The notes under the pieces are model-generated. The model was given only the letters and a program-made list of their open reading frames with translations. It was not told where the DNA came from and did no database searches. From the sequence record NZ_CP067021.1: DNA of 64,000 bases; one strand, written 5' to 3'. Both the position numbers and the translations under genes were made by a program. Source of the stretch: a plasmid. Shown here piece by piece: positions 6,902 through 40,473 of the stretch; position 1 is the first letter of the stretch, and every line of letters begins with the position of its first letter.

Positions 6902-9900
6902 TCACATCTCAAGTCTTAATTGGTCAGCTTCATTTTCTTTTTCAATCGAAACTTCAGCAATAATTTTTTGGGTATTTTCGTTTTGCAGATCTTGATCAAA
7001 TATTTCATTCACACAAGTTTCGACTAATTGTTCAGTCAAGTTTCTGCAGATCTCAAACTCTAAACCTTTAGGTTGTACGGTAGGGTAGCCGTCAATTAAA
7101 AATGAGTTTTTCATTTCATTTTCATTTGAAACTTTAGAGTACAAATAAGTCTCAAAATAACGGGCAAACATTTCGGTACTGGTCGCGTAATACGGCGTTG
7201 CACGATTTTCAGCACTGTCGATATTTAAACAATCCTTTTTATAACGCGATAGATTGTCACTAAAACGAATATCACCTACGTTTACTTCAACGTCTTGCGA
7301 CTTATCAAAGAAGTTTTGCATTAGAGTATGAGGATTTTTAACACCCTCAGGCATGTACTTCTCTACCAGGTTATAGAACTTGTATTTAGATGACTCTATC
7401 AAGTATTCAGATAGGTTTTGCGATAGTGTTTTTAAATCCACATTCGCTGCAGTCGCAACACCTGTAATTTTTTCTTCCAAACCGGTTGTAGGTAAATGAT
7501 GTTCTGGCTGGCGCATATCATTAAGTTTTTGCTGATAGCGCTCAAACGACTTAAAGCTTATAGCATTAATGTCAGTGTTAATTTTAGAGACAATGACATC
7601 CACCTTGTCTTGAACCGTACTGAAGAAAGATAGGTTTGTATCAGCTTTATATTCACGCTCATACTTCTTCAAGTACTCTTCAATTTTCTCAAACTGACGG
7701 CGAATGAGATCTTCATAGTGCTTTTGGTGCCAGTCAAAGAAGCTGCTTAAAGTTTTGCGCGTAGAATTAGGATAATTCTCTTTATTCTTAATCACTTCAT
7801 CATGCATTGAATCAGCAACAGTGTGGTACGCCTTGATTGCAGTCTCAGCATTCTCATAAAGTACTTGACCGTAATTTTTCATTGGCTGAACTGGCTCATT
7901 CATCATCGCACGATGTAACTTTTCAAAAGCACGACCGGACTCAGTAACAGGGGAGTATCCAGCATCCAACATATTTGATAAGAAGTGTCGTGCACCTGGT
8001 ATCTCAAAATTAGGGATGTCTTCATAATAGTCCTGAAGTACAGAACGATTCATTTGAGCGTGATTTTTATATACTTCCGCTTTTTCCAACATCCCCAAGT
8101 GTGCATCTAGCGCATGGCCATACTCATGAGCCAAACTTCCAGATCCGCTATCACGAGTTAAGTTAACCACGTTCTTAGACAGCTCAAAATGCGCTGCAGA
8201 TCCTTTAATTCCGCGTGAAGCCAAAGCAACACCCAAGTTCAATAAACCATTGTTTGATTTAAAGCCCATGAGTTGTTTTAAGTCAGCCAATGAGTCATAC
8301 ACGGCATTAACCAACTGTTGAGCCACAGGACTAACTTTATTGCCTACTTCAACACCACGGATAGAAAAGTCATCTTTAAGCTTGAATGAATCCACATCGG
8401 CACCTTGGCGATGATCAGGACCAGTACGAGAGTAATTTAACAATCCGTAAATGCTTGATTGGACTTTTTCAGTCACAAAGCCATTTTCAAGTTTTTTCAC
8501 TTCACTGGTAAATGACGGCAAACGTGGTGCTTTAGGTGTATTCACAGCTTCAGTCGTTGCTTCTATAACTGGTGCAACAGGATCTTTAACATAAATAGGT
8601 GCAGATTCAGCTTTAACTAAACCACTTTCAATCGCACTTTTCAGAACGTATGGTTCAAGCACAGTTGAATATAAGCCAGTACGTTGCATGTTGCTGATCG
8701 CATCGCTCACATCTTTAGTGACTTTCGACTTACCGTAAAAATCAAAGATCTTACCTGTTGATAGAATCTCACTAAGTTCTTTATCAATCGTTTTTTCGAT
8801 GATTTTCTCAAGCTGAACACTGATACCGCCTGTATGTTCTGGCATAATGTAGTACTCATTCAAATTGCTAAGCAATTCGAAGTAGTTTTTGTAGTTGTTC
8901 TTGGTACCTTTACTATAAAGCCCGATATAGTCTTTACGTTGGCGATCAGTCATACCAAGACTTTCAGCAGATAAGCTTTTATTGTTTCTTACCGCATGAA
9001 TCAACTCTTCTTGAGTATCTACCATCAAATTTCTGATGTTAGAAACAACAGCCACATACGCACGTAATTCTGTCGCACGTTGGCTATCAAGCATCAACGC
9101 ATTTTTAGAGAATAACGGTTTAGTTGGGCAGTAGTCATACATTGCCTTTACGAATATTTTGTCATCAATACCGAGTGGCGTATTGGTGTACCAAGCTTGG
9201 AATTCTTTATTTGCAACGATTTTTGCTTTTCGATAGTCCGTAGCTGTTTGATCGGCTGATGTCGCTGAAATATATTCCAATGAAATATATTCACCGTAGC
9301 GATCTTTATGTGCACCGCCAAACTTGGCACCTACATCACCTAAGTACGTAGCAGGGGAGTCACTTGGCTCTACCTTTACATCAACAGGCACATATTTGTC
9401 TTTTGGTACCAATTGATCGATAAACGTGAAGTCAGTAAACACACGGTTTTGAAGTTGTAAGACATCTTCAACTGAGCGCATACTTTTAACAGGAAAAACG
9501 CACAGAGACTTGTAATCACCGTGAATATCGGCTTTATCACCAAAAAGTTTAACCGATGCATATTCATTGTCGGTCGATGGCTTGATGGCCAAGAACAATT
9601 TGTGATTTTCAGTTTTGATATACGGCTTTATGTGTGCAGTTTGATCGTATAGAGCACCAAGCGTATTCGTAATCAAAGTTTGGAAATGCAAACTTGCTAA
9701 CTGTTTATTCTCAAAGTCAGTTTTGTGTTTAATCTGAATTTCAGGCAAGTCAGATAGTGCTAATTGCTCTAAAGTGGTACCGAAATTAACCTTAGATTCG
9801 ATAGCATTTAAGATTTCGTGACTAAACTGGTCTACATCATCAAAACCAGTAATCAATTGATACTGATAGTCATGAGACGGTATACGAAGAAGCACGGCAG

Positions 9901-12900
9901 TCAATTGAGGCTCATAGTCCGTATCAACCATAAACAATTGAGGTGTTTCATCTTGTTGAGATGATTTGTTTAGCAACTTGTATTGGTGAACTTTAGGGTT
10001 GGAACCTACAAAATGCTCAGCATAAGCCTGTTTAACCGTATCTTGTAATGCTTTGACATGCTCAAGCATGACGGCATTGACTTCATTTAAAGCGGTTAAG
10101 GTTTTATATTTTTCTGCAAACGCCTCATTCACGGCGATCTGCTCTAACATAAATCTAGGCTGAATATCCTCAAGTTCTGGATTACCTACACGGTTTAATA
10201 CAACACTAAATTTGAGCTTATTAATAAATGGATCAGGTTCACCATTGATACCATTGCTAAAAAGTTCTTTAAGATCGCTTTTCTGAAGTTTAGAGTTCAC
10301 CAAATCAAACGGGTGAACTTCTTCAAATGCCTGAACATCAAAAACTTTGGTTAAGTTTTTAGGCATGATTGCTGTCTGGCCATCTACATGAGCGATAACA
10401 TAGGTGTACGCTGGAGAGATGTTGCTCAGAAGCTCAGTGACTTCACTCGGTTTTTTATCGTAGCTAAGATCCTCAAACTTTTCGTATGTTGCAGAATTAA
10501 GATTGCTGATGAAATCTAATTTAGAGTTGAAATTAGATGGATGATCAGAAATGTACTGGAACATCTTGTTTGGTAAAGACGTAAACACTTTATTGATTAA
10601 AGTTTGCTGACTGTCTTTAGCTTTGAAGAAGTTGAGATCTGACTCGTAATATTTTTCAAAAGTGAACTTAGCTGGAGGCATAAACGTCATGCTGTTGCGT
10701 GAAGTCGATAACTTAAACAAAGCATTCGCAGACGTTTTAACCGCATCTCTATCATTAAAGCCAGTAGCCTTATGCATATTGGCATCTAGGGAAACTGAAT
10801 GCCCAATAAACGGCGCATTTTTGTCTTTATGATTGTAGAGGCGTATATACTGAAGATCATTCTTTTGAAACACGGTGATAAACAAATCATGATCAGGGAT
10901 CTTGATTGCGCCGTGGTGATCTTCATAGTGCTTTACAGCATTTTCTAGCTGAGTGTTAAAGTATTCAGATTCACTATTGAACTGTACGTTCTCTTCTTCA
11001 GCTGATAGCGAAAAATATTTAACGTTATTCTGAAAAGCTACATTAGGTTTGAGAAGATCCTTAATCACCTCAAATTCTTTTTGTACTTCAACATCAAATT
11101 TGCCAAAAACTGTACGCTGATTAATATCAATCAGGTTCAGATAGTTGAATAGCTGAATGTTGTTGTAGTTGTGGTTCGGTAGGGCAGTTTTGTTTAACTG
11201 GAGCTTACCATCTTCTAACTGCATGCTTTGGACTTGCTTTAAGTCATCTGCAGTCAGCTCTACACCAAAGACTTTCTTAGTTTCTTGTTTGAGCTCTTTA
11301 TCTTCACCAGCAATCACTAAGGCAGCTATTTTTTGTGCCTTGTCATAATCGCCATCTTCTAGATATAGGGTTTTCTCAACAAAATACTTGGCAATGTTCG
11401 CATACGCTTGATTTGTTGCTTTGTAGCCATCGGTAGACAATGAAAAATGTTTGTTTTCATCAAATTCATTTGATTTAACGGTTTTAACTTTTAAATCGTC
11501 AATGTCACCCGTTGGTTTAATCTGAACATAGATTTCATCTGCAGCGAGATCCATATTCGAGACAAATAAGGTCGAATTTTTAGAATAAAACTGACGTTCG
11601 ATACTCGACAACAGATCCTTTGCATCTTTGCGGTCTTCTTCCATGTCAGACTGCATATCTTCAGCAATCGACTTGATGTTTTCGCCACGTTCATCCTTTG
11701 TGATAAATGACCAGTCTTGTTGCGGATATTTGGCTGTTAATGCCTTTTGGAAGCTTTGAACCTCAACAAAGCGATTGAACTGACGGTCCAGACTAAACCC
11801 ATCTGTATGTGATGAAGTTTTAGCAAAAATATCCTCAGGAACAGAATCAGATTTAGTCTTACGATTGAAGTTTTCACTTGCATTTGGCACCAATAAATTA
11901 CGGAATAAAATCTCATTTACACCGTTCTTTAAGAATGACGCACTTTTAGTTTGTGATAGAGATTGTTTTAAAAATGCTTCATCAAAGTTTGATTCATCAA
12001 GAAGCCGAGTAAACTCTTCAAAATACGCTGAAGCTAATTTATCGTTATTAGCAAGATCAGCCGTGCACAGATCGCTTAACTCTAAACGCTGTGCATCTTG
12101 CTCTAGCGATAACGGCGCAGAAAAATCACCAGCAACAAAATCATTGATATTTTGCTCAACATAACTGTTCGTGCGTGACATCAACATATCAACTGCAGTT
12201 TCATTATTCACAAATTCCTGAAGCTCAGGCGTGTTAATTGAAACCAATTGATTGTCGAATTGCTTAGACAGTAATTTGAACAGATCCGCTTTGTGTTGAT
12301 TGCTTTCTACTTCAGATTCAAAACCTACAAATTTGCCGTTTTCATCTTTAGCGTAGTAGAAGCTGTTTTTATTAAACAAAAAGGTATTTGTTGCAGACGT
12401 AATGCCAGATACCAAAGTTTCACTTTGCCATAAGACTTTTTTAACTTCATTGTACTGTTTTGAGATCTCAACATTGTGTGTGTCGATTTCGTCAGAGATC
12501 GCTTGAATATCATCTACGCTGAATCTTTTTGTTTGTGTAGCTGAGCGCACGACATCTTGAATTTCAGCATATTTCTGATTTAGATAATCACTATATTGCT
12601 TCTCAATTTGTTGAGCTTGTTCAGTAGCCTTAGGAATGACATAGACATCCAAAATCTGTCTAATTTCAAGCATAGACGGCGCGAAATCACGCACCTTGTC
12701 ATTGCCTCTTGCATCCAATAATTCTTCAGGAAACTTTAAGAGCTCTTTAAGTACGGCAACATCATCAATTTCTGGAGTAGGGAGGTCATTTGCAATGTTG
12801 AGTAGATCAGACTCAGTAATAGATGCCTTCTCAGTTGCCTCAAAATTAACATCAAGATTATTCAAGATCTCGTTAACATTTGATTCATTGAGTTGTTCTT

Positions 12901-14158
12901 CTAGTTTACGCTGTTTGATTTCAGCAGATTGGTGATCATAGAACGCATTAAACTTAGGAACGATGTTTACAGAGAATTCAGAGAACTCTTGGCTCAGATC
13001 GGCAAAGAAAACTTTACCTGTTGGCATCTGGCGTACCATTTGTTGTAAGACATCATGGCGAAGCATGGCAGCGTCATACACCATCTTATCTACAAGGCGT
13101 GTTTCAATACCTTGTTTAGACGCCATCCATGTGCCGTGTTCATCTTTATAAAAAGCTGGAATACCTTGTTTAGCTGATTCTAATAGCTTTGGATACGGCA
13201 ATTGCTGTTGATTAAACACACGGTCTATCACAACAAGATCAGAAGCTAATTTTTGTACATAAGCATCAACATCTTTAAAGCTCATGTTAAACATTCTGTT
13301 GCCACGGCCATGCTCAATCAGCTGATTAAAAGTGGACTCGTATTCATGAGCAAAATGCACCAGGTTAATATTGTCATTTAACCCCAATGCTTCATACGGA
13401 TCATGAGCAAAGATTTCAGGAATATGGCGCAAGTCATCAATAATCAGTAACGAACCATCTTTTTCGTAATTGACGGGTACTGCAAATGGAGACAACTTAA
13501 TTTTGGCTAGATTATCTAGACTTTCGCCACTGGCCATCGCCGATTCTTCATCTAGATAGACTTTAGAGAAGATATTTTCATAGCCATAATCTTGAAGACG
13601 ATTAAAAGGAATTTTTGAAGACTGAAATTGAGCCAAGTAGGATTTGTTCGATTCCTGAAGACTGGTTTTCAGCGTATCAAGGATATTAGATCCATTGTTT
13701 AGCTTACTGACATACACTTCAGGGAAAGCAGAAAGGCGTTCGGTCGCTGATGCGAAGTAACTTTTCCAGTTCGGAATGTTCTTCTTAAACGGTAGATTGG
13801 TGAGATAAATATCTTCTTGCTTAGTCGGTACTTTCATATCGTTGGTAAACGCTGGAAAGACCTTCTGAAGATCGTTTAGATCGATACCAGACTTTGCCGG
13901 GTTCTTATAGTAGTACGCATGAATACCATCATCATTTTGCACTTCATAAAAATGGGCATCCATTAACACTTGTTTAAATTGCTTAGAACTGTTTTGTTCA
14001 ATAGATTTTTTGAATTGCTCAAATTCATTAACAACAAGCATCGCCGTTTTTGGGCGAAAATTGTTGGCTGGCGATACTACAAGACGCGCACCAAGACCAG
14101 TTAAATTAGGCCATTTAACTTCATTCACTTTATAGTCTCCTACTTGGTCACATAGCAT
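6902..14158 (-). CDS. Giant multidomain (polyvalent-type) protein, 2418 aa, with C-terminal SprT/ArdC-C-like zincin metallopeptidase domain
   Basis: 7257-nt open frame. N-terminal KWPNLTGLGARLVVSP signature shared with the other giant ORFs. Near the C-terminus: KFGGAHKD, then LGVALASRG..AAHFE..NLTR..LAHEYGHALD (HExxH, DNA about 8105-8130), then a downstream TEMFAR motif. Confidence 0.85.
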   Translation of the reverse strand: MLCDQVGDYKVNEVKWPNLTGLGARLVVSPANNFRPKTAMLVVNEFEQFKKSIEQNSSKQFKQVLMDAHFYEVQNDDGIHAYYYKNPAKSGIDLNDLQKVFPAFTNDMKVPTKQEDIYLTNLPFKKNIPNWKSYFASATERLSAFPEVYVSKLNNGSNILDTLKTSLQESNKSYLAQFQSSKIPFNRLQDYGYENIFSKVYLDEESAMASGESLDNLAKIKLSPFAVPVNYEKDGSLLIIDDLRHIPEIFAHDPYEALGLNDNINLVHFAHEYESTFNQLIEHGRGNRMFNMSFKDVDAYVQKLASDLVVIDRVFNQQQLPYPKLLESAKQGIPAFYKDEHGTWMASKQGIETRLVDKMVYDAAMLRHDVLQQMVRQMPTGKVFFADLSQEFSEFSVNIVPKFNAFYDHQSAEIKQRKLEEQLNESNVNEILNNLDVNFEATEKASITESDLLNIANDLPTPEIDDVAVLKELLKFPEELLDARGNDKVRDFAPSMLEIRQILDVYVIPKATEQAQQIEKQYSDYLNQKYAEIQDVVRSATQTKRFSVDDIQAISDEIDTHNVEISKQYNEVKKVLWQSETLVSGITSATNTFLFNKNSFYYAKDENGKFVGFESEVESNQHKADLFKLLSKQFDNQLVSINTPELQEFVNNETAVDMLMSRTNSYVEQNINDFVAGDFSAPLSLEQDAQRLELSDLCTADLANNDKLASAYFEEFTRLLDESNFDEAFLKQSLSQTKSASFLKNGVNEILFRNLLVPNASENFNRKTKSDSVPEDIFAKTSSHTDGFSLDRQFNRFVEVQSFQKALTAKYPQQDWSFITKDERGENIKSIAEDMQSDMEEDRKDAKDLLSSIERQFYSKNSTLFVSNMDLAADEIYVQIKPTGDIDDLKVKTVKSNEFDENKHFSLSTDGYKATNQAYANIAKYFVEKTLYLEDGDYDKAQKIAALVIAGEDKELKQETKKVFGVELTADDLKQVQSMQLEDGKLQLNKTALPNHNYNNIQLFNYLNLIDINQRTVFGKFDVEVQKEFEVIKDLLKPNVAFQNNVKYFSLSAEEENVQFNSESEYFNTQLENAVKHYEDHHGAIKIPDHDLFITVFQKNDLQYIRLYNHKDKNAPFIGHSVSLDANMHKATGFNDRDAVKTSANALFKLSTSRNSMTFMPPAKFTFEKYYESDLNFFKAKDSQQTLINKVFTSLPNKMFQYISDHPSNFNSKLDFISNLNSATYEKFEDLSYDKKPSEVTELLSNISPAYTYVIAHVDGQTAIMPKNLTKVFDVQAFEEVHPFDLVNSKLQKSDLKELFSNGINGEPDPFINKLKFSVVLNRVGNPELEDIQPRFMLEQIAVNEAFAEKYKTLTALNEVNAVMLEHVKALQDTVKQAYAEHFVGSNPKVHQYKLLNKSSQQDETPQLFMVDTDYEPQLTAVLLRIPSHDYQYQLITGFDDVDQFSHEILNAIESKVNFGTTLEQLALSDLPEIQIKHKTDFENKQLASLHFQTLITNTLGALYDQTAHIKPYIKTENHKLFLAIKPSTDNEYASVKLFGDKADIHGDYKSLCVFPVKSMRSVEDVLQLQNRVFTDFTFIDQLVPKDKYVPVDVKVEPSDSPATYLGDVGAKFGGAHKDRYGEYISLEYISATSADQTATDYRKAKIVANKEFQAWYTNTPLGIDDKIFVKAMYDYCPTKPLFSKNALMLDSQRATELRAYVAVVSNIRNLMVDTQEELIHAVRNNKSLSAESLGMTDRQRKDYIGLYSKGTKNNYKNYFELLSNLNEYYIMPEHTGGISVQLEKIIEKTIDKELSEILSTGKIFDFYGKSKVTKDVSDAISNMQRTGLYSTVLEPYVLKSAIESGLVKAESAPIYVKDPVAPVIEATTEAVNTPKAPRLPSFTSEVKKLENGFVTEKVQSSIYGLLNYSRTGPDHRQGADVDSFKLKDDFSIRGVEVGNKVSPVAQQLVNAVYDSLADLKQLMGFKSNNGLLNLGVALASRGIKGSAAHFELSKNVVNLTRDSGSGSLAHEYGHALDAHLGMLEKAEVYKNHAQMNRSVLQDYYEDIPNFEIPGARHFLSNMLDAGYSPVTESGRAFEKLHRAMMNEPVQPMKNYGQVLYENAETAIKAYHTVADSMHDEVIKNKENYPNSTRKTLSSFFDWHQKHYEDLIRRQFEKIEEYLKKYEREYKADTNLSFFSTVQDKVDVIVSKINTDINAISFKSFERYQQKLNDMRQPEHHLPTTGLEEKITGVATAANVDLKTLSQNLSEYLIESSKYKFYNLVEKYMPEGVKNPHTLMQNFFDKSQDVEVNVGDIRFSDNLSRYKKDCLNIDSAENRATPYYATSTEMFARYFETYLYSKVSNENEMKNSFLIDGYPTVQPKGLEFEICRNLTEQLVETCVNEIFDQDLQNENTQKIIAEVSIEKENEADQLRLEM

Positions 14159-23873: not shown

Positions 23874-23885
23874 TATTTAGTCTCC

Positions 23886-25918: not shown

Positions 25919-25930
25919 ACCACCCCCAAC

Positions 25931-26893
25931 TTAAGAGAAAAAGTCTTTAATTGATTGGGTGACAGAAGTAGATTCTGAACTTGAAGTTTTTGCGTTAGAC
26001 GGTGTGCTAGTACTGGCTTTTTGATCAGTTGAATAAGAAACTGTACCAGTCGATCTACTACCATTGATTGTATAAGTATCTCCACCCTCAAAAGCACCGC
26101 TAGGCATAACTAGACCAGGATCAAGTTTACCAAGTTGACCATTCACAGCAGTACCAAGCGCACCCGATACATCAGTGTATTGACCCGCTTTGTTGATTTC
26201 ACCTATAACATCATTCAATGGGCCAACAAGTTCAGTACTTGCAGTTTTCATTGCGTCACACGCTTTTTTAGTCGCGTAATCGACAACCATTTGTTGCGCT
26301 GCATTGATGATTGTATCAAGTGATGGAATAGTCACAGAAAGGTCAATGATTTTACCGATGTCAGCAAAACAGCCACCTTGACTAGCTGGACTGAACATTT
26401 TGTTAATATCGATTGGACGACCCCAAACCGTCATTTGTAGATCTAAGTTGTCTTTAACGACTTTACCGATCCCATCAGTTGCACATGATTCAATATTGGT
26501 TTGAATGTTTTGAGCAGCTGCTTGTTCACCTTTTTTAACCGCCATGAAGTTGTTTTCAGCAGCAGTAGAGTTGAATGACGAATTAGAACTGGTAGACGAA
26601 TAATATCCGCTATTTGAATTCGACAAAGGCGTATCACCACCAGAGCTACTTGCAATGGTCGATGATGTTGCGATGTTTAAGTTACCCATGTTTTGAGTAT
26701 TACTGGTAACAGAAGCAACGGAACTTTGTTGAACTGCAATAGCACTTGAACACCCAATAACGGTAGCAACAAAAATGCTTAAAGCACTTTTAGTTTTAAA
26801 AGCTGGCTTAACATTTTGTAGATTAGGGTTAGTCCTTAAAACATTGCCCCGAATTTGTTGTAGCCTTTTAGCTTTCTTGTGATTGTTACGCAT
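25931..26893 (-). CDS. Secreted or lipoprotein-like Ser/Thr-rich protein (about 320 aa)
   Basis: Start placed at internal Met (MRNNHKKAKRLQQ...) to avoid overlap with the upstream gene; track start is 26938. Hydrophobic segment ends VATVIGC (lipobox-like). Long S/T-rich low-complexity stretches. Confidence 0.55.
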   Translation of the reverse strand: MRNNHKKAKRLQQIRGNVLRTNPNLQNVKPAFKTKSALSIFVATVIGCSSAIAVQQSSVASVTSNTQNMGNLNIATSSTIASSSGGDTPLSNSNSGYYSSTSSNSSFNSTAAENNFMAVKKGEQAAAQNIQTNIESCATDGIGKVVKDNLDLQMTVWGRPIDINKMFSPASQGGCFADIGKIIDLSVTIPSLDTIINAAQQMVVDYATKKACDAMKTASTELVGPLNDVIGEINKAGQYTDVSGALGTAVNGQLGKLDPGLVMPSGAFEGGDTYTINGSRSTGTVSYSTDQKASTSTPSNAKTSSSESTSVTQSIKDFFS

Positions 26894-26918
26894 ATCTAGC
26901 CCTTTAAAAGAGTTATGA

Positions 26919-27725
26919 TTAATGTTTTTTAGAAGCAAGTTCGCAAAGCACTACAACATCTTTTACTACAGCTTCACTACTTAAATATAAGGTAGCTATA
27001 AGGTGTTTTAACTCATATATCCTTTTAGCGAACTTATATATAGAATCATAATACCATTCTTCACCATATTGTAGTATATACTTCTCATTGGTTAAACATA
27101 GTTTTATGAATTCTTTTAAAATAGGACGCTTAAAAATAATAGCTGTCGTAATATATATAAACTGAGTACTAACCAAACACATTAAAGTATTAATTAGCTC
27201 TACTTCCTCTTTTAAGCATTCCTGTAAAACCAATGGCTTTAGGGTTTTAGAAAAACCTTCCTCAGTCACAATATCTTTTAAAAAACCTGAATCCGAGTAC
27301 TTATTTTTCAGAAAATTACTTAATTCATGCACGTTCTTTAAGTAAATATTGATCTGATCTTTAGACGCAGTTTTGAAATGTTCCTCTACACGTTTTGGAT
27401 CGTTTAACGTGATGTCGAGCATTTCAGATTCATTATTTTTTTGATTTAAAAGCACAAAAGCGGTGAAGCTGGTAACTTTGCGTGTTTCGCCAAGATAGCC
27501 ACTACTGCAAGCATTCAAAAAAACAAGGCAATGCTGTTCAGTAAGATACAAGCCGTATTCTTTTGGTGTACCTGATTCAAAGAAATTGAGTGAACGCTTA
27601 TCAAAATGAAAAGTGTTCTCTAAGGTCTGACAAAAGTAGTTAATAGAGTGTACAAAAGCTTCTGGTACAAAGGTTGTAGGCTCTTGAGACAATGCTATGT
27701 TTTGGCTTTCTATGCTCATTCCCAC
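26919..27725 (-). CDS. Hypothetical cytoplasmic protein, 268 aa
   Basis: ORF separated by 3 nt from the upstream gene. Confidence 0.55.
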   Translation of the reverse strand: MGMSIESQNIALSQEPTTFVPEAFVHSINYFCQTLENTFHFDKRSLNFFESGTPKEYGLYLTEQHCLVFLNACSSGYLGETRKVTSFTAFVLLNQKNNESEMLDITLNDPKRVEEHFKTASKDQINIYLKNVHELSNFLKNKYSDSGFLKDIVTEEGFSKTLKPLVLQECLKEEVELINTLMCLVSTQFIYITTAIIFKRPILKEFIKLCLTNEKYILQYGEEWYYDSIYKFAKRIYELKHLIATLYLSSEAVVKDVVVLCELASKKH

Positions 27726-32100: not shown

Positions 32101-33528
32101 CAAACTTGCTTTGTCTTGTGGACCACCAGCAATGTTTAATGTGCTCTTTGGTGTACCTTTTGGTGCATTCGGATCAGCTGATTCAACATCTTCCTTTACT
32201 GTCTCTTTAGTCTTCTGATTTTCTTTATGTTCTTTCAAAAGTAGAGCAGCTTGCAACTGGTCGCTATGTTCACGGGTTTCTAATAACTGAATTACTTCCT
32301 TGGTTAACGTGTCCGTATTGAATTCAAGATAGTGAATCTCAAGTTGTTCAAGTCGAGCAGCTGTATGGTCGCTATTCACACGCCATTGATCCATGACGAT
32401 AGTTTTTGGCACTAAGCCAAGTTCTTCAGCTTCAATCCCACGAATTAAGCAAAAGTCACGCACTTGGCGCATCAATGCGTTAATTTGGTTTTTATCGGTT
32501 AATTCACCTGAAAAATAGGTATTCGGTGCACCCGTAACTTCGTTGTAGATCTGCTGCTTTGCTTCACGCACGACTTGGTTTTGGTTAATCAAGCCTTCAA
32601 TCGCGAATTGACGATTACTCAGGAAGTTGAGGGCATTTTCTTTAGTTGCACCCTTCAGGCTTAAACCATAGTAGGGCTGAGTGACAAAAGATTTTGTCTC
32701 AAAGTTAAAGAGGGTTTTTTCAGCCACTTGAACGGCTTCAAATGGATTCTCTTCTTTGGAAAGGAGGAAATCAGGATCATTGTCTGATAGGAATAATTTA
32801 GAGTCTGCAGTTGTATATACACGGTCTTCAACTGGCAATGAACTGTTATTTTCAGCAATATTGCCTAATCCTTGGTCCAGTGCGTTTTTAGTCTGGATTT
32901 TATTCAGATCCGCAATAAACTTAAGATCATCATCATTCTGCAGATCAAGCCCGATGTCTGCAAAGAATTCTAATTGACTGGCTGGATCTCTTTGCTCAAG
33001 TGCATCAAATACTTTACCAATCAGAACAGGATCAAGTTCAGCTAAATCATTGACAGTGACAGCGGAAAGATCAAACGTGTTTTCAGGAATGATGGACTGT
33101 TCATTCTCGTAGATCGGGTAGCTACTACGCTCATAATCACCTTCGTCAAAAAACATCGGTTCATCATCGTTCAACCGAGTATCTTCAAGAGGGGGAGCGT
33201 AATCATAATCTGGGTGCCCAGGAGGTACAGAGTTACCGCCCATAGGCTGATCATATTGATACCCATCATCTTGCATGACTGGCGGTTCTTCCATTAATGG
33301 AGGTTCAGATAGGGGATCTTTGGGATGTGGTTCAGACTGGTATTGTTGCGATTGATCTTGTGCAACATTGTTTTGTTGTGGCGTAGGCTGGATGGATTGA
33401 AATTCCACGCCGTCCAAACTTAAATCATCCCACTGTTCCAGGCCCTCATTGAAAGTTAATGATTGGCCGTCTTGCAGTTGATCAAGTGTTTGCTCGTCAA
33501 AATTATCTTGTTTAGGGCTTTGGTCCAT
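29122..33528 (-). CDS. Giant protein, 1468 aa: acidic Gln/Pro/Tyr-rich N-terminus, one central hydrophobic helix, coiled-coil-like C-terminal half
   Basis: 4407-nt open frame. N-terminal EQWDDLSLDGVEF resembles the W-x-D-L-S-x-x-G-V signature of the other giants. Central segment LAALSAKMIAVMIELVKKTIKLIIAAIMAMF. Confidence 0.8.
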   Translation of the reverse strand: MDQSPKQDNFDEQTLDQLQDGQSLTFNEGLEQWDDLSLDGVEFQSIQPTPQQNNVAQDQSQQYQSEPHPKDPLSEPPLMEEPPVMQDDGYQYDQPMGGNSVPPGHPDYDYAPPLEDTRLNDDEPMFFDEGDYERSSYPIYENEQSIIPENTFDLSAVTVNDLAELDPVLIGKVFDALEQRDPASQLEFFADIGLDLQNDDDLKFIADLNKIQTKNALDQGLGNIAENNSSLPVEDRVYTTADSKLFLSDNDPDFLLSKEENPFEAVQVAEKTLFNFETKSFVTQPYYGLSLKGATKENALNFLSNRQFAIEGLINQNQVVREAKQQIYNEVTGAPNTYFSGELTDKNQINALMRQVRDFCLIRGIEAEELGLVPKTIVMDQWRVNSDHTAARLEQLEIHYLEFNTDTLTKEVIQLLETREHSDQLQAALLLKEHKENQKTKETVKEDVESADPNAPKGTPKSTLNIAGGPQDKASLAASSVASKSFKDMRNEEGNERPPLARENSHGHPRTVADELAALSAKMIAVMIELVKKTIKLIIAAIMAMFNKNKSLDNLKNIWDKPINPDVTVKSNHPDAQQPEQLANTADKSKLTEPGKNADILKPISKEQMLPLLNDPYTTQLNKDRDGVTLEEFDLNVAKVYAIDGEQYIVIDVVGKDSVEGVESSTPFIKLVKEADLPPQVEGSDAPTPITPFYLETIEDKVTFLSIEELHEGIKSEKIHEFEGRFFEPICSQYLEQARMFLGAEYPLGQDPEQMTEEAKASYKDQFIQRAYQSGQMISDQVKKAKSKLSNLLGKFKGNTAEQSATQSAPQSQDQNNDGKPMNPYDSIYVDHDSDLEAFFKDRHNNVSNAEIEQFVGMVYEDETTQTNMVVLDIASDNLDKRAIVVPLSVIEDLENITEKDVLYLKDIVNESSTVPLYELESVEPIDELNALGKFSSEYLDKLKADTINNTAEQTNTYARSAERELELSKMILEGKLSVVGAMVKTDYGQFVVLTSDSEGHKSIAPEYNAVAITNLDRQITTEDIINAGITTIPRKDILEWNTVTALNEESANQVTYLDPEVYQAVSNAIHQNREKELIQTLSTLQPSAALNSIGSKIITQDGNTYIGLCAKDDGKSGEYYAVKAPDNQLSPIGASYINDVGVEVISRSQIAEFQNAENNQQQLISHDVFVTLLNAVNNSNEQEVLHLFSNLDQVKQQIKDSLFSEKESEKVIEQNQFIEQLKNNNLVKADHINALNQIADQIQNTQLKNVVKGMASTVVAPENSQNEMYVQSFLHLNQRLDTLQQDLKLQAASNLMNAEYKQLFECMDDHLVLPTAYGDAKFVNLNSVEPRIVEFRNSAETGQIFDSFNAVIAETGNVEIALQHLKQEILTDHYIAAIHEDVKLHRLEQQDMDKIKEVNQILEADFDKTGLRLEALQDGLNLNTKNYLDQVKLEKNTTSQFLSDLDKHIDLEVARRNDHDNDQTLGR

Positions 33529-33840: not shown

Positions 33841-36800
33841 TTAGAAAGATAATTGCTGGATTTCTTGATCGTTATCTAGGGTTTTACCCTCATGTAACTC
33901 AGCCTTATAAGCTGGCTCTTCTGCAGGATTAAGCATACGGTTAATTTCATTTAAAAAGTAACCATTACCATCAGGAAGCTTAGATTTTAAATCCAAAAAG
34001 GCAGCTTCAATTTTGGTTGTACTGTCCAGCTCGTCAACAAAGCGTTCAACATCCTTGAGATCAAGCGCAAATCTAAACTCATTACGGCCTGGCTCAGTAA
34101 AGTGGATGTTCAACGATTCATCTGTTTTACCGCCTTTAGGATCATGGAATACGTTGGTATTCGACATAAAACGATTGAACTGTTTTGCAACAGATTTTAC
34201 CGTCACATTAAAGCAGTCTGAACCGTTGTAGTAGAACTCAATACTTGCTTTCTTGTACGGGAAATTAACCTTAGTACCCACATAGTTATTGCGGTTGAAA
34301 TCAATGTTTACAGGCAATTGATTAAAGAAGTTCGCAATCTCTTTAACTTGCTTAAACGTCACTTGGTTTTCAAGAGAGCTTTCAAACAAGTCAGTTGGTG
34401 TATTTGATGGCAATAATAACGCACGGTTACGCATACCATCAGCATCGGTAAATATAACGGTTGAATGTCGTAGATCTAGTGAGCTGACAATCTTATGTGC
34501 CTTGAACATATTGCCCGTTAAGGTAATCGCTTGTCGTGTGACATCACCAGACGGCGCTTTTTCAAAATAGGTACGCGTATAACGGGAATAATTGTTTTGT
34601 TCAGTAAATAAGTTCACCAAGGGTTGACGATCCTCAACATGACGTCTATTCACATCAGCATAAGAATAAAATTCAGGATTGAAGCGTTTTAGGATAATAC
34701 GTCCTTTTTCACTCACTGGAGCTACCCAATCCAAGTCTTGCTTGGCATTTTGCATGGTGTAATTGATCAGTGGAACTTTAAACGACTTCTTATCACCAGG
34801 GTAAACCAAATCAAGCTTAACCGCATTCGGTGTGATTGCACCTCCACGTAACGGCGGTAGGTCTAGACGTAGCAAAGCACCTGTTTTGTGATCTGGCGTC
34901 ACTTCATCATCAAAAAGACTAGGTTTTGAGATAAGGAACAATAACCCATGCGCTGAATGACCTTCTTTTTCGTTCCTTTCCATAGAACGAGCCAAGAATT
35001 TTAGATCCTGAACAATTCGATACATGCGATCAAAGTTAGAGGTCAAAATAGGATCATTGGCTAGATAAACCGCTTCAGCTACTTTCTCAAAGGCATCTGC
35101 AGAGTGATCATCAGGTTTACGAAATTGAATATCATCAATGTGTTTTACATTGGCTTCAACAACACCGAAATGATCAAATACTTCGTGTCGATAATCACGA
35201 ATTACTTCACCACGCATTTGCCCACTTTTGAAAAATAACTTTTGCTTAGCAAAGCCTTCATATTTTTGGTACATCAATGCCTCAAAGTTATAGGCATAGT
35301 GTAGTAGTCCGTTTACCGTTTCATTGATGTTTTCATTGATACGTTTAAATTGACGCACCAGATAATCATCACTTTCTTTGAACATGAGTTTTAGATTGTC
35401 AGCACGTAATGGCTCAACATGTTCAATGTATTGCAGACCTTCAAAACGCACAGGTAGATCAAAGGTATTGATCTTGGCTGCTTCTGTTTCTGAAGTCACG
35501 GTAAAGAAGTTGTCCTTCACTTCAAACTCACGGACTTTTTTAGCTTTCCAGTCTAAAAAGTTGGTCTTGAGTGGGTTACGACCCAACAAGTCTAATTCAC
35601 GGATCTTATCGTTATAGTCAACAACCAAGTCTTGATAAACCTGTTCTTGCTGACTAATCGGCATCAAAATCAGTTTAGATAGCAACTGGTTCACATGATA
35701 GTTTTGCGCCGTGCGATACGATGGTCCTTTTTCATCATCCGAAATATCAATATCAAGTGTGTTCGCCAAGTTCACGTTATTTTTCAAATAGTCCAACGAT
35801 ACCCGGTTGCCAATGTAGTTGAGCATGTCAGGATAATCGTTTTCGTTAAACTTGGTTTCTGAGTTGGCAGAGACGTTCGCTGATAGGGTAGACAGTTTAC
35901 GCATCATCATTAAGTGCATACGTGTTTCTGCTGGAATACCCGAATCTACTGTCGTCATAATCGGATGTGATTCTTCACCACGGCGACCCACACGACCGAT
36001 CATCTGAATCGTATCGGTAGAGTTCTCAGGTTTTTGCAAGAAAAACAACTCACGTTGGCGCAAGTGATCCGATGGAATTGTAGGATCAGGGTTTTTGGCT
36101 GCATGTAGAGAAATACCCGTACAACCAGAGCGAGTCACAATAACAACATCGATTTCACCAGATTGGAATTTTGATTGAACCAAAATCTTACCTTGTGTCG
36201 TATTGTTCTCTTGTTTATTAACCTTCCATTTGCCGTCTCTTGTTTCCGTTAAGTGGATCTGACGGCCAGAGATTTCATCAATCTTGAAGCCAGCTTTTGT
36301 CACCTTGTTACGTAGTACGTCCAAAGGCATCAAAGGTAGATCAGGGAACTTTTGAATCTTTTCTTTGATACGATCCAAAATGATTTTATACGGACTTACC
36401 ACTGGATCGCCGTTTTCATTAAATGTCACTTCCGTACTGAGCTTCTTAACGAACGAGTTACCGTAGTTATCTTCAGCTTTCACCACATCGATGCGATCTA
36501 ACATCACTTCAAGCAAGTCACGGAATTGTGGGAGTTCATCTAAAACAGAAATTTGACTTTGCAGATAGCTACCGCGCTTATCTTCAAGCTTAGTCAATTC
36601 CTTTTGAATATTTTTCGCTGCTTTTTCATCGCCAGCGTCACGGTTTTCTTTGATCATGAGTTTTTGAAGCTCATTTTCAAGAAATTCAATTTCTGACGAT
36701 ACCGACTTGAAGTTATTAAACGCTTTTTCTTTTTCAGGCGAATCAGCGGTAACGTCTTGCGCCGTATCTGCTTTTAAAATCGCTTCCATGCGACTTTGCA

Positions 36801-39800
36801 TCAAAATGTTGAATAGACTCTCACCCGTATTTTCCAAACCAATCACGGGCTTTCTACCCTCATGTAATGCCTGAATCACAGCATCACTTGTAGAGTCAGT
36901 TTTCAATGCCAATAGGAATTGCTTTTGGATCTGGTACATTCGAGATCCAAAGTTCATCACACTCAAACTTAAACGGTTTTTCGGATCGTCTGAATCCTGA
37001 TGAAAGTCTAAATTGGCAACAGCATCATCATCATTGGCAATGTTTTCTAGCGCATCGAGGCGAATATCTTTAGAAAATTTCACCATGTCCGTCAAGATGT
37101 CAGAAAGAACATCTGAGTAATTGTGAAATTTCTTAATTTCCTCTTCAGTTGGCACAAAGGTTTGAATGGTAATGTGCGAGAGATCTTGCTCTCTACGAAT
37201 CATGGCAGAGCTGTCTACCAAACCTTCAGAAATAAACTCCAAAATTGGACCATCTGCATTTTCGATAACCTTTTGTAAGTCATTACGAGATACGGATCGA
37301 GGGAACAATTTATGGAAGAATTCAAGATTTTCAGGTTTCTTAATTGCCGATGCAGACTGGAAATTAATTAGATTGGTCTGATCAATAACATCTAAGAAAA
37401 ATTGACTTGTAGCTGATTTCAAGGATGCTGCACGGTGCGTTTCATCCATCACCAAAACAGTGTCTTGATTAATAAAACGAGTCAATAACGCACGTTTCCG
37501 GTTTGGTCGGTTAAATTGGCTATACGTTGCCAATACCAAGTCATGTTGCGCTGGAATATCTTCAATTTCCTTAGGCAGATCTTGGCCAGTGAATAAAACC
37601 TCTTCAGTACCAAAGCGGTTAATCACAGCATCCGAGTTAAAGATAAACGGATCTTTAAAGAACTTGTCACTGTCTGTAGCAACAATATCACGCCAAATGT
37701 CGTTCAAGAGTTGCGTTGTATCTGTAAGGAAAACAGGGGGCTTTCCTCTTAACGCACTATATCGTAAACACGCAGCTGCAATACGACCTTTACCTAAACC
37801 CGTCTGGTCGCCAATAAGCACAGGTAAGTTTTGGTCAAAACGTAAAATGATATGGGCAACCGCATCGACCTGTTCACATGCAAAAGCGGACTTTAGTGCA
37901 TCAAAATTGTCATATTGCAATTTCTTAGCGACATAGGCATCAACAAGAGTAGGGTAGTTACCATTATCGACTTCAGCTTGGAAATTGATACCCCCAAAAC
38001 CTAATACATTTTGGATGTGTGTAGTCAATTGAGCATTTGCCTGATTAATCGCTTTAATCTGGTTTTTAGCCACTAAAGCAATTGGCTCAGATGCCATAGA
38101 CATCGGTATATACTTAACTTGGTATATATTTTCCGGAGTTGGTTCTGTTGTGTTTTCAGCATTAGGAACAGGAACAATCGGCTGTAAATTTGATTGGTCA
38201 GATTCAACAGTCGGTTCTTCTTTTTGCTCAGTACCGATCGCTAATTCAGAATTTAACTTAGCAATCTCTTCAGCAGTTAAACCCGGTTCCTGTTTTACTT
38301 GCTCTACCGCTGGTTCTTCAGCTGGTGTTTGTTCAGGTGTTTCACCCTCATTGGTCGCCGTGGTATCACCTACTTGAAGATTAACGTCATCGTCAAGGTC
38401 TTCATCCTGATTTTGGTTCTCGTGCGGATTCTTTACCTCAGGCACGAAATCATTGTCATTTTCATTTTCAAACGTTGGTGTAGCTTCAGTTGGTGTAGGT
38501 ACATCATCATCTGAACTGGTTGTTTGCGTACTAACTTCAACGGTTCCAAAGTCAAAAGAAACTTTATTCGGTTTTGATTTAGGTTTACGACCAAACATCG
38601 GTTTTGGTTTGACAGCTTCCTCTTGCTTAATCTCTTCTTCTTTAGCGACCACGACTTCATCAAACATAGTGACTGCAGACGTAGGCGTTACACTTGATGC
38701 AATATCTTCAAGTGGCGAAACAGGCTGTTCATCACCTAGACTGGCAAACAAATCGTCATTTTCTTTTTCAACAGGCTTAACCTCAACAACAGGTTCAACC
38801 ACTGGTGCTTGTTGTGCTTGTTGCTCAACTGGAGTCGGAGTAGTTGGCTTGAAGTATAGATCCTTATTCGGATTCAAACGATTATAGATTACGTTATTAG
38901 CCCATCCCCAAAGTTCGTCATAGTCCGTAATGACTTTCAACTTATCTGGTACCACAGAAGATTGGTAAGTTTGTAGTAACGCTTGTTCGTTTTTACGATT
39001 GCCTACCACTAACATACGAACATTTTGATTAGCGCCGTTTCGTGCATATGCATTGCCGTGGATTTCTACAACCGCCTCAACTTCATAATGCTTATAGAGA
39101 TAATTAAGTAAATTCTTTGATTTACGCTCAACCGTACCATCTGAAATCTGTTTATCTGAGCCAATAATGAAAACTGAACGCCCTTGATCGTTTCGTGCGT
39201 TTAGTGATTTAACCAGAATGGCATGGTCCAATTTATCCGTACTGAACCAGACGTTTTCTGATGGATCTACCAATAATGGGTTTGGATCTACGCCGTTACG
39301 CTGTTGAACCAAAATTGGTGCAACACGTTCTAGTTTATCCATAGCACCAAAAGGAGGGTTGGCAATCACATAGTCAACTTTTTGCTTAAACGTTTGCTCA
39401 AAATCAATTTGTGTAGCATCTGCAGTAACAACCGTGCATTCATAATTTTGAGTCAGTGCTTTTGTACGTTCAGCACGTTTGGGATCTAACTCAACCGCAT
39501 AGACAGAAGCATTACGCTCTTGGGTTAATAAACCGATTAAAGATCCATTACCCACAGTTGGCTCGAGCACGGAAAAGTTTTGTTTTGTTCGGTTATCACC
39601 CTCAATCAATAAGCGCTGAGCCACAAGTGACATCGGGATTGGAGTCGAATATTGCTGTAACATACGAATCGTATTGTTTCGCATGGTCTTAGTCGGCATG
39701 CGATTGTATAACGCTAAACTCGTTTTAAATGAGCTCTCAGTAAAATCAAGCTCACCTAACTTTTCGACCATCACTGTTTCAAGCGCTTCTTCTGCAGTAT

Positions 39801-40473
39801 GGATCTGTTTATCTGTTACCTTGGATACATCAACGTCAGCATTTTTGGCTTGCGTGATTAGAGCTAAAAACTTTAAAAAGTCCTGGTGATTATGGCTCTT
39901 TGTTTCATGTTCTAATTGATAGATATAGCCTCTTAAGCATTCTTTTAAATCTTTTTGCTTGGTCGCACGTAAGTACAGACTAGACGGCTGATCATTAGGA
40001 CCTTCAGGTATTTGCGTACCTTGGGCATTCACGTAAAAACGGTTATGAGCTGAAGCATAGATTTTGTTGCCATCAGAGTTATAACCGAGTGGAGTTGCAC
40101 TATTCAACGCAACGTTCAATCGTTGTGGCACCAATGTTTTTGCTTGGGCATTGAATAAATCATGCAATTCTTGGCGAGTCGCAAGCACACTACGGATAAA
40201 TTCTTTTGGAATACCCAAAACTTCATGAAACAGTCTTGGTTTGATCGTTTCATTCAAATTGTATTGATACAAGTGACCGTCAAAGTGAGGATAAGCCTCA
40301 AACTTCATCGGTGTAAAACCAATGTTATTCAAATTTTCTTTAGATAGTTTTTTTTGAACGTCCAATAAAAGTAATTGGCTATCCGTCTGGCCAACACGCC
40401 GTACATCGAGATATACACCAGCTTGTGATAAGTCGATCCATTTAATTTTTTCGTTTAAATCATGAGTAGTCAT
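33841..40473 (-). CDS. DarB-like giant fusion protein, 2210 aa: N-terminal gamma-class N6-adenine DNA methyltransferase, then an acidic Pro/Thr/Glu-rich linker, a DExH (SF2/SNF2-like) helicase and a C-terminal domain of about 700 aa of unknown function
   Basis: Methyltransferase motif I (VLEPTVGNGSL) followed by motif IV (VIANPPFG, DNA about 39345-39365). Helicase motif I (TGLGKGR, about 37771-37815), motif II (VMDETHRA, about 37421-37455), motif VI (QMIGRVGRRG, about 35971-36003). Low-complexity linker about 38150-38900. N-terminal KWIDLSQAGVYLDV signature. Confidence 0.9.
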   Translation of the reverse strand: MTTHDLNEKIKWIDLSQAGVYLDVRRVGQTDSQLLLLDVQKKLSKENLNNIGFTPMKFEAYPHFDGHLYQYNLNETIKPRLFHEVLGIPKEFIRSVLATRQELHDLFNAQAKTLVPQRLNVALNSATPLGYNSDGNKIYASAHNRFYVNAQGTQIPEGPNDQPSSLYLRATKQKDLKECLRGYIYQLEHETKSHNHQDFLKFLALITQAKNADVDVSKVTDKQIHTAEEALETVMVEKLGELDFTESSFKTSLALYNRMPTKTMRNNTIRMLQQYSTPIPMSLVAQRLLIEGDNRTKQNFSVLEPTVGNGSLIGLLTQERNASVYAVELDPKRAERTKALTQNYECTVVTADATQIDFEQTFKQKVDYVIANPPFGAMDKLERVAPILVQQRNGVDPNPLLVDPSENVWFSTDKLDHAILVKSLNARNDQGRSVFIIGSDKQISDGTVERKSKNLLNYLYKHYEVEAVVEIHGNAYARNGANQNVRMLVVGNRKNEQALLQTYQSSVVPDKLKVITDYDELWGWANNVIYNRLNPNKDLYFKPTTPTPVEQQAQQAPVVEPVVEVKPVEKENDDLFASLGDEQPVSPLEDIASSVTPTSAVTMFDEVVVAKEEEIKQEEAVKPKPMFGRKPKSKPNKVSFDFGTVEVSTQTTSSDDDVPTPTEATPTFENENDNDFVPEVKNPHENQNQDEDLDDDVNLQVGDTTATNEGETPEQTPAEEPAVEQVKQEPGLTAEEIAKLNSELAIGTEQKEEPTVESDQSNLQPIVPVPNAENTTEPTPENIYQVKYIPMSMASEPIALVAKNQIKAINQANAQLTTHIQNVLGFGGINFQAEVDNGNYPTLVDAYVAKKLQYDNFDALKSAFACEQVDAVAHIILRFDQNLPVLIGDQTGLGKGRIAAACLRYSALRGKPPVFLTDTTQLLNDIWRDIVATDSDKFFKDPFIFNSDAVINRFGTEEVLFTGQDLPKEIEDIPAQHDLVLATYSQFNRPNRKRALLTRFINQDTVLVMDETHRAASLKSATSQFFLDVIDQTNLINFQSASAIKKPENLEFFHKLFPRSVSRNDLQKVIENADGPILEFISEGLVDSSAMIRREQDLSHITIQTFVPTEEEIKKFHNYSDVLSDILTDMVKFSKDIRLDALENIANDDDAVANLDFHQDSDDPKNRLSLSVMNFGSRMYQIQKQFLLALKTDSTSDAVIQALHEGRKPVIGLENTGESLFNILMQSRMEAILKADTAQDVTADSPEKEKAFNNFKSVSSEIEFLENELQKLMIKENRDAGDEKAAKNIQKELTKLEDKRGSYLQSQISVLDELPQFRDLLEVMLDRIDVVKAEDNYGNSFVKKLSTEVTFNENGDPVVSPYKIILDRIKEKIQKFPDLPLMPLDVLRNKVTKAGFKIDEISGRQIHLTETRDGKWKVNKQENNTTQGKILVQSKFQSGEIDVVIVTRSGCTGISLHAAKNPDPTIPSDHLRQRELFFLQKPENSTDTIQMIGRVGRRGEESHPIMTTVDSGIPAETRMHLMMMRKLSTLSANVSANSETKFNENDYPDMLNYIGNRVSLDYLKNNVNLANTLDIDISDDEKGPSYRTAQNYHVNQLLSKLILMPISQQEQVYQDLVVDYNDKIRELDLLGRNPLKTNFLDWKAKKVREFEVKDNFFTVTSETEAAKINTFDLPVRFEGLQYIEHVEPLRADNLKLMFKESDDYLVRQFKRINENINETVNGLLHYAYNFEALMYQKYEGFAKQKLFFKSGQMRGEVIRDYRHEVFDHFGVVEANVKHIDDIQFRKPDDHSADAFEKVAEAVYLANDPILTSNFDRMYRIVQDLKFLARSMERNEKEGHSAHGLLFLISKPSLFDDEVTPDHKTGALLRLDLPPLRGGAITPNAVKLDLVYPGDKKSFKVPLINYTMQNAKQDLDWVAPVSEKGRIILKRFNPEFYSYADVNRRHVEDRQPLVNLFTEQNNYSRYTRTYFEKAPSGDVTRQAITLTGNMFKAHKIVSSLDLRHSTVIFTDADGMRNRALLLPSNTPTDLFESSLENQVTFKQVKEIANFFNQLPVNIDFNRNNYVGTKVNFPYKKASIEFYYNGSDCFNVTVKSVAKQFNRFMSNTNVFHDPKGGKTDESLNIHFTEPGRNEFRFALDLKDVERFVDELDSTTKIEAAFLDLKSKLPDGNGYFLNEINRMLNPAEEPAYKAELHEGKTLDNDQEIQQLSF

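Follow-up and report, generated by a model that had tools for sequence, protein, structure and literature searches.

The stretch of plasmid DNA analysed here (the window, 64,000 nucleotides of sequence record NZ_CP067021.1) encodes four giant proteins, which we call G1 to G4. Profile comparisons indicate that three of them, G1, G2 and G4, begin with one common domain of about 100 amino acids (aa), that this relationship is real and that the domain is previously undescribed; we refer to it as the KWxDL domain. On the same sequence evidence it is the hallmark of two otherwise unrelated, co-encoded families, one combining a methyltransferase (MTase) with a strawberry-notch (Sno) helicase and the other a variable middle with a zincin and a C-terminal LPD1 domain. 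Polyvalent proteins of this kind are known; what is new is a domain family that ties together two families of polyvalent proteins on conjugative plasmids of the Dot/Icm type, a term used here for plasmids that are typed as MPF_I or bear Dot/Icm genes. A first-pass annotation of the window had described four co-oriented giant open reading frames (ORFs) with a shared N-terminal signature, and all four indeed lie on the minus strand with the positions and lengths listed in Table 1.

The signature was given as W-x-[DN]-L-[ST]-x-x-G-[AV]-x-[LF]. All four motif strings reported for it are present, but two had been exchanged between proteins: EQWDDLSLDGVEF belongs to the 1468-aa protein (G3, aa 31-43) and KWIDLSQAGVYLDV to the 2210-aa protein (G4, aa 11-24). 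Six-frame translation of the 64 kb shows the pattern, and looser forms of it, exactly four times, always at one of these N-termini; since the pattern was derived from those very sites, this count is not an independent test. The relationship is supported instead by profiles of each family. A hidden Markov model (HMM) built from N-termini of the LPD1 family alone has G4 as its top non-family match in the window (E=0.0085), and an HMM built from N-termini of the Sno family alone matches LPD1-family N-termini at 7.7e-9 and 1.2e-5. When the 420-aa N-terminal alignments of the two families are compared with hhalign, only G2 3-108 and G4 8-103 are shared (84.5% probability, E 7e-6, 91 columns). An HMM made without the sequences of plasmid pB18-1, Xanthomonas and Yersinia recovers the G2-like (3.5e-17), G1-like (1.4e-13) and Sno (4e-3) proteins of pB18-1, the Xanthomonas LPD1 protein (3.4e-15) and the Yersinia Sno protein (2e-4), with no further match in about 350 kb of loci. 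The similarity reaches well past the motif (alignments A1 and A3), and the family HMMs and hhalign together argue that the similarity between G1/G2 and G4 is genuine and that it reflects a domain of about 100 aa rather than a 13-aa tag. The proposal of an N-terminal module common to otherwise unrelated giants thus holds for G1, G2 and G4 and fails for G3, while the idea of a short tag gives way to a putative folded domain, which is internal in the Sno giants of P. savastanoi and Yersinia.

AlphaFold models of the domain from independent alignments have the same predicted topology. The G4 model (predicted local distance difference test score 81.1, predicted template modelling score 0.71) places strands at residues 9-14, 20-27, 31-38, 67-72 and 94-99, and the G2 model, from an LPD1-family-only alignment, scores 81.7 and 0.72. 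The predicted fold is alpha/beta, with the order b1-b2-b3-a-b4-b5-a-b6-a and with W, L and G invariant, and in these models the motif first noticed corresponds to the first strand and turn. Conservation falls mainly on the hydrophobic core, together with K, W, D, L, G and R, and the net charge is about zero; this points to a module without catalytic activity and probably without a classical DNA-binding role. DNA binding was considered as a favoured function and set aside because of this net charge and because the sequences carry no basic surface signature.

That the motif arose by chance combined with the paralogy of G1 and G2, leaving G4 unconnected to them, is very improbable. Pairwise BLASTP between G2 and G4 gives only E=5.8 over 19 residues, the pattern was drawn up post hoc, and chance does account for the match in G3. 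The reciprocal matches of the family-specific HMMs, the 91-column span of the hhalign match, the agreement between the two models and the retention of the motif, in about ten genera and in both families, at the same position all speak against this reading and leave it largely refuted.

The match in G3 is coincidental. The domain HMMs do not detect G3, and with a position-specific scoring matrix of the nine-column core built without G3, 0.4-1.0 chance sites of equal or better score are expected in the six-frame window set; with 11-16 columns, the G3 match is no better than chance. Downstream of the motif, G3 passes into acidic, Q/P-rich, low-complexity sequence. Among the G3 homologs (P0031-P0039, 98-31% identity), variants at 98% are uninformative for this question, and in more distant members the site reads WDDLSMDG (75%), WGDLNLDD (65%), NWDDSFLDQ or NWDDNYLDQ (50-53%), EWDQ (51%) or GLGHISLDG (31-33%), so that this family does not keep the invariant W, L and G of the true domain. 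G3, earlier counted as a bearer of the signature, is therefore not a member, since the HMMs miss it and its homologs lose these residues. Searches of Pfam, NCBIfam, PHROG and PDB with G3 found nothing, and with no recognised domain it does not combine two or more disparate domains in one polypeptide. G3 is nonetheless a conserved syntenic partner of the Sno giant: the order Sno giant, small ORF, G3-like protein, 299 aa, 146 aa is found again in a metagenomic contig (L020), and in pB18-1 the G3 slot is occupied by an unrelated 2300-aa protein. We also note that in the low-complexity region of G3 (window 33230-33330; aa ~67-100) a 12-aa Q/Y/D-rich insertion, NNQYDQYDQYEQ, distinguishes members that are identical over their first 60 residues. 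The earliest block shared by the whole family, FDLSA[VI]T...VF.AL.Q.D..SQ, lies at aa ~152-195, and the family C-terminus retains ND-x-x-NDQ-x-L.

The remaining giants carry recognisable domains. G4 has the N-lobe (AAA_34, 27.9 bits against a cut-off of 27; ResIII, 34.0 against 22.5) and the C-lobe (Helicase_C_4, 57.2 against 30.5) of a strawberry-notch superfamily 2 (SF2) helicase, all above the Pfam gathering thresholds. Its putative MTase region contains NPPF, an N6-adenine MTase motif, at aa 372; the Pfam MTS family reaches 16.1 bits against a cut-off of 23 there, the NCBIfam Erm/PrmC matches are weak, and RefSeq annotates G4 homologs as N-6 DNA methylase. G1 and G2 each combine a zincin motif (HEYGH at aa 2011 within a CLCA_X-like region at 1909-2024 in G1; HEFFH at aa 1989 within 1891-2040 in G2) with an LPD1 domain (PF18796) at the extreme C-terminus (aa 2317-2358, 32.5 bits in G1; aa 2277-2339, 34.0 bits in G2; gathering threshold 27). 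The two are paralogs, with about 300 N-terminal aa (E 4e-15) and about 480 C-terminal aa (E 5e-18) in common by BLASTP. The earlier description of the downstream domains as otherwise different thus stands except in part for G1 and G2, which have this C-terminal stretch in common. G2 has orthologs in P0020 (48% identity) and P0023 (35%). For G1, the RefSeq coding sequence of the related plasmid pXBB1-9 is 10 codons shorter than the listed ORF, and the alignment with the 58% identical ortholog P0017 begins at G1 residue 11. Translation probably starts 10 codons after the listed ATG (window 14128-14158), which would make the conserved W residue 6 of G1. Pfam and NCBIfam scans of the giants gave no HUH, relaxase-like or nuclease domains, and PDB sequence searches with G2, G3 and G4 gave no match.

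The KWxDL domain itself appears confined to giants of the Sno and LPD1 families. A HMMER search of 1.84e9 cluster representatives returned 19 clusters at E<=1e-3, all of them Sno or LPD1 giants or their fragments, save one spurious repetitive match (P0024). In the real full-length matches (1059-2459 aa) the domain lies at residues 1-110 and is accompanied by either a C-terminal LPD1 or a Sno helicase. About 25 homologs, from Acinetobacter, Pseudomonas, Xanthomonas, Cupriavidus, Shewanella, Burkholderia, Achromobacter and Aeromonas, have the conserved W 3-13 residues from the start. Examples are the LPD1 giants of P. savastanoi (KWFDLERFGAAIRV) and of pAC1633-1 (KWLNLENYGLNV), the G2-like (KKWIDLTQFGVRAVV), G1-like (ITWLDLRRFGADLAL) and Sno (MKWIDMSSAGIYL) proteins of pB18-1, the Xanthomonas Sno giant (MQKWIDLSAQGIYL), and the N-termini from Shewanella (MKWLDFTPHG) and B. 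pseudomallei (VNWVDLSKIG). In the Sno giant of Achromobacter insolitus (NZ_CP026974.1, L014 ~3560-4035) the annotated start lies too far downstream; the ORF is open upstream in frame and begins MQWIDLRDPAG, 5' of the mis-annotated start, so RefSeq misses the domain there. The N-terminal regions of the giants have no meaningful match in Pfam, NCBIfam or PHROGs; the same Pfam library gave LPD1 in G1 and G2 but no family for the KWxDL domain. A protein-database homolog search with G4 1-290 gave no match, and one with the domain alignment gave truncated fragments only; that database seems to lack the giants at full length.

The window is the transfer region of an Acinetobacter megaplasmid of the pXBB1-9/pALWED1.1 type. 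The G4 gene is at least 99% identical in 65 Acinetobacter megaplasmids of 250-400 kb, and almost all genes of the matching stretch are labelled 'hypothetical' in pXBB1-9, the best-annotated relative. There, the giants are abutted by the tra genes DotA/TraY, DotD/TraH, DotC/TraI, DotB/TraJ, DotI, DotH, DotG, TraU/DotO and TrbC/DotL, with ParAB and StbA also beside them; DotA/TraY extends past the low end of the window. Because tra genes adjoin them in pXBB1-9, the giants are part of a conjugative transfer region and not of a prophage. For the 'III-4a' megaplasmid family (pALWED1.1/pXBB1-9), conjugation has been shown experimentally and an MPF_I (R64/Dot-Icm-like) type IV secretion system (T4SS) described, with no relaxase identified (PMC8490738). 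MOB-suite labels most related plasmids 'non-mobilizable' despite their MPF_I genes. Distant homologs of the LPD1 and Sno giant families (22-33% identity), obtained by tblastn against plasmids and from a representative library, occur in conserved synteny on Dot/Icm-type plasmids of several genera (Pseudomonas, Xanthomonas, Yersinia, Cupriavidus, Aeromonas, Shewanella, Burkholderia and Achromobacter, and other Acinetobacter plasmids). G4 orthologs are likewise found on such plasmids in many genera, and T4SS genes also lie alongside the giants in P. savastanoi, Yersinia and Shewanella plasmids. Of the MTase-Sno homologs retrieved from the plasmid collection, every one with an MPF call or visible T4SS genes sits on a Dot/Icm-type backbone; several records have no MPF call.

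This setting and the domain content agree with the suggestion of the first-pass annotation that the giants are polyvalent proteins of a conjugative element. Such proteins, which include a DNA methylase-helicase dyad, zincin metallopeptidases and LPD1, are linked to the very first stage of invasion in a published survey (Iyer, Burroughs, Anand, de Souza and Aravind, 2017; PMC5512222). At least two disparate activities are found in one polypeptide in G1, G2 and G4: an adenine MTase motif with an ATPase of the SWI2/SNF2 clade (strawberry-notch) in G4, and a zincin HExxH with LPD1 in G1 and G2. Like the polyvalent proteins, these are multi-domain giants encoded on a plasmid next to T4SS genes, here the Dot/Icm-like genes seen in pXBB1-9, and are predicted to act early in invasion. 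Unlike the catalogued proteins, they share one N-terminal module between two polyvalent families of one operon, confined to Dot/Icm-type plasmids; this module was not found in the searched passages of the survey, which mention only LPD36 before the MTase (PMC5512222).

The first-pass annotation had also drawn a parallel with the Dar anti-restriction proteins that phage P1 packages into its capsid, and this parallel does not hold. G4 does resemble DarB in architecture, and in architecture only, as a large MTase and SF2 helicase protein (PMC5512222). DarB is thought to shield incoming DNA, and the idea of an ordered co-delivery of several large proteins is common to both systems. However, with the G4 MTase-helicase core as query, tblastn detects no P1 DarB at E<=1e-3 among 50,697 phage records, megablast of the locus against phage records gives no match, and the G4 and G2 N-terminal fragments, G3 and a 544-aa neighbouring protein have no match among the PHROGs. 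Capsid or packaging genes are lacking, the helicase is of strawberry-notch type, the neighbours are Dot/Icm tra genes, and delivery, if any, would be through the T4SS. The same lack of PHROG matches, the enzymatic domains and the surrounding tra genes argue against the giants being ordinary structural proteins such as tail fibres or tape measures. The chance that this is a phage-like system of either sort, with capsid-packaged or structural proteins, is close to nil. Two records deposited as 'Acinetobacter phage MD-2021a' (CAKLQH020000019.1 and CAKLQF020000023.1, ~69 kb) carry an MTase-Sno giant whose tblastn identity, coverage and E-value equal those of A. baumannii MPF_I plasmids of ~117-238 kb; these records look like plasmid fragments deposited as phage.

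Two secretion systems offer further analogies. The substrates of Dot/Icm (type IVB) systems with IcmS/IcmW/LvgA adaptors, and the Sog primase transferred by IncI1 plasmids, use the same type of secretion system; several related plasmids have an IcmW-like gene after that of the Sno giant, and the C-terminal tails appear similar. The giants differ in bearing a conserved, predicted folded N-terminal domain, found on Sno or LPD1 giants alone, and their translocation would follow only by analogy. To our knowledge, the Dot/Icm signals described so far are C-terminal, and adaptors do not bind through a conserved, folded domain at the N-terminus. Type III secretion effectors with N-terminal chaperone-binding domains likewise place an N-terminal module on diverse cargo next to a small adaptor or chaperone gene. 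They belong to another secretion system and have an extended chaperone-wrapping segment rather than a compact folded unit, which makes the analogy conceptual only.

The explanation we favour, tentatively and at somewhat less than an even chance, is that G1, G2 and G4 are polyvalent proteins of a Dot/Icm-like tra region which the KWxDL domain couples to the transfer apparatus, with G3 a separate matter. The domain would be a protein-protein docking module linking both giant families to one common partner of the conjugation apparatus; candidates are the relaxosome, the coupling-protein complex or an adaptor such as the IcmW-like protein, whose gene lies beside that of the Sno giant in some lineages. 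Both families would be delivered with DNA into the recipient, where the methylase-helicase and the metallopeptidase would serve as establishment or anti-defence factors, acting early through methylation of and translocation on incoming DNA and through proteolysis of host factors. The restriction of the domain to Dot/Icm-type plasmids, its N-terminal position and the IcmW-like gene downstream of the Sno giant in some lineages make a targeting or docking role plausible. Delivery to the recipient and a role against host defences are suggested by the polyvalent-protein framework (PMC5512222), and we infer anti-restriction activity and translocation of the giants by analogy. In its most specific form, in which the domain is an unrecognised folded N-terminal docking module particular to conjugative Dot/Icm-type (MPF_I) systems that licenses polyvalent effectors of >250 kDa for co-translocation with DNA, the proposal is doubtful.

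Several points count against docking for delivery. Translocation of the giants, or their binding of T4SS components, is something that we infer from related systems, and the hhalign probability for the G2/G4 domain is 84% and not >95%. Signals of T4SS substrates are usually C-terminal (or internal), not N-terminal. In the Sno giants of P. savastanoi and Yersinia the domain lies behind a 262-290-aa extension with no Pfam match, which implies a strong N-terminal preference and not an obligatorily terminal tag. Only two cargo families bear it, always co-inherited with the same plasmid backbone, so its association with MPF_I may be purely phylogenetic. A profile of the IcmW-like proteins of Pseudomonas, Xanthomonas and Yersinia finds no such gene in the Acinetobacter loci. 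Lastly, the C-terminal tails of the giants, which we take to resemble Dot/Icm C-terminal signals, could possibly be the actual Dot/Icm-type signal. This leads to the main rival, a tentative but serious possibility, in which the domain is real but is a shared module that works after transfer or in the donor, while the T4SS recognises a conventional C-terminal signal. The Sno and LPD1 giants might use the module to form hetero- or homo-oligomers, or it might bind a target, of the host or of the plasmid, that both have in common. The polar or acidic tails of G1, G2, G4 and their orthologs, with conserved hydrophobic ends that seem Dot/Icm-like, would fit this, as do the upstream extension that the domain tolerates in two lineages and its presence on two cargo families only. 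A generic interaction module, however, leaves the strong bias to the extreme N-terminus in about 25 proteins unexplained, and the neutral charge already described disfavours classical DNA binding as its task.

It is also conceivable, and in our judgement quite unlikely, that the giants are not translocated and do their work in the donor or resident cell. Examples would be the processing of plasmid DNA, self-methylation ahead of transfer or a place in the relaxosome, to which the KWxDL domain would tether them. The lack of an identified relaxase in this plasmid family (PMC8490738) and the 'non-mobilizable' calls would fit such a role, as would the position of the giants within a tra operon amid exported or membrane proteins. 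A natural deletion bears on the same question: in the clinical A. pittii megaplasmid pAP43-OXA58-NDM1 (NZ_CP043053.1; L019 2885-6033, equivalent to window ~32150-40473), the sequence from about codon 43 of G4 through codon ~459 of G3 is missing, leaving a 44-aa remnant and a truncated G3. Since this plasmid persists in a clinical isolate although it lacks G4 and the first third of G3, G4 is dispensable for plasmid maintenance. Against action in the donor stand the combination of MTase-helicase dyad, zincin and LPD1, which is that associated with early-invasion effectors (PMC5512222), and the scans that gave no HUH, relaxase-like or nuclease domain in the giants.

The tails of G1, G2 and G4 are polar or acidic and end in hydrophobic-x-hydrophobic, and these ends are kept in orthologs while the rest of the tail diverges (giant and ortholog: QLRLEM/NLDLTI, PELAL/NELSI and QQLSF/FLLSL). 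The IcmW-like gene, of ~170 aa, lies directly 3' of the Sno giant in Pseudomonas, Xanthomonas, Yersinia and Aeromonas plasmids (frameshifted in Aeromonas). The 544-aa protein belongs to a family of 424-599 aa with 17 invariant residues in a six-sequence alignment, always immediately 5' of the Sno giant; its homologs in L009, L002 and L004 are tblastn matches and those in L003 and L008 share the position. Searches with it against Pfam, NCBIfam, PHROG and PDB, the last also with a family profile, gave no match. As these plasmid families lack an identified relaxase, one candidate role for the 544-aa protein is in DNA processing or as an adaptor that has so far escaped recognition. The four genes between G2 and G3 are kept in all five related plasmids compared and have no meaningful match in Pfam, NCBIfam or PHROGs. 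In the 398-, 278- and 335-aa products a hydrophobic stretch comes after a basic N-terminus, much as in a signal peptide or anchor; the N-terminus of the 413-aa product is similar by eye, yet no transmembrane-like segment was scored in it. The products are predicted to be exported or membrane-anchored, and the genes probably encode periplasmic or membrane components of the transfer apparatus that have so far gone unannotated.

Table 1. Features of the window and of related loci (positions prefixed with L refer to the locus named)
Feature	Position	Strand	Description
G1	6902..14158	(-)	2418-aa ORF; probably 2408 aa from GTG at 14128
G2	15137..22423	(-)	2428 aa; KWxDL domain, variable middle, zincin, C-terminal LPD1
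G3	29122..33528	(-)	1468 aa; acidic; without recognisable domain
G4	33841..40473	(-)	2210 aa; MTase and strawberry-notch helicase
KWxDL domain of G1	13799..14122	(-)	A3 HMM 1e-32, residues 22-133 of stop-to-stop segment; alignment A3
KWxDL domain of G2	22100..22417	(-)	aa ~3-108; hhalign boundaries; A3 HMM 8.4e-32
KWxDL domain of G4	40159..40452	(-)	aa ~8-105; hhalign boundaries 8-103; A3 HMM 1.5e-19
G3 look-alike WDDLSLDGVEF	33400..33432	(-)	aa 33-43; in acidic, Q/P-rich, low-complexity N-terminal region
C-terminal tail of G1	6902-6990		
C-terminal tail of G2	15137-15230		
C-terminal tail of G4	33841-33930		
Four genes between giants	22632..26938	(-)	413, 398, 278 and 335 aa; 413 and 398 are paralogs
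544-aa conserved protein	40505..42139	(-)	First gene of minus-strand block, directly upstream of Sno giant
Divergent intergenic region	42140-43107		~1 kb; AT-rich, GC ~0.31
Homologs of 544-aa protein	L009:7832-9631, L002:596-1870, L004:18561-19955, L003:17816-19114, L008:5089-6381		
IcmW-like genes	L003:25896-26414, L008:12305-12817, L002:8462-8983, L006 ~6650-7300		

The divergent intergenic region divides the minus-strand block of giants and tra genes from a plus-strand block of small hypothetical genes, which includes an M48 metallopeptidase (~52.5-53.3 kb), and is likely a control region. A scan of the window for promoter and terminator consensus sequences found nothing above shuffles, and an Rfam scan of the window found no RNA family. 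We further note that pB18-1, a divergent megaplasmid, carries Cas6/Cse3-like and RAMP-superfamily CRISPR-associated genes (NZ_CP044456.1 63600-66035; L009 14601-17036) a few kb from its Sno giant, across the divergent promoter region.

Acinetobacter megaplasmids of the pXBB1-9/pALWED1.1 type carry carbapenem and tigecycline resistance between Acinetobacter species, and their transfer region has been annotated almost wholly as 'hypothetical'. A fragment of about 100 aa with invariant W, L and G offers a handle on how giant establishment or anti-defence proteins may be recruited to a conjugative type IVB system. If the KWxDL domain is not a recruitment module, it is still an unannotated domain family that is due a place in the catalogue of polyvalent-protein domains. 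If it is one, T4SS substrates would have a new kind of determinant that differs from the C-terminal and internal signals known so far, and the domain might be targeted to keep clinically important Acinetobacter resistance megaplasmids from becoming established.

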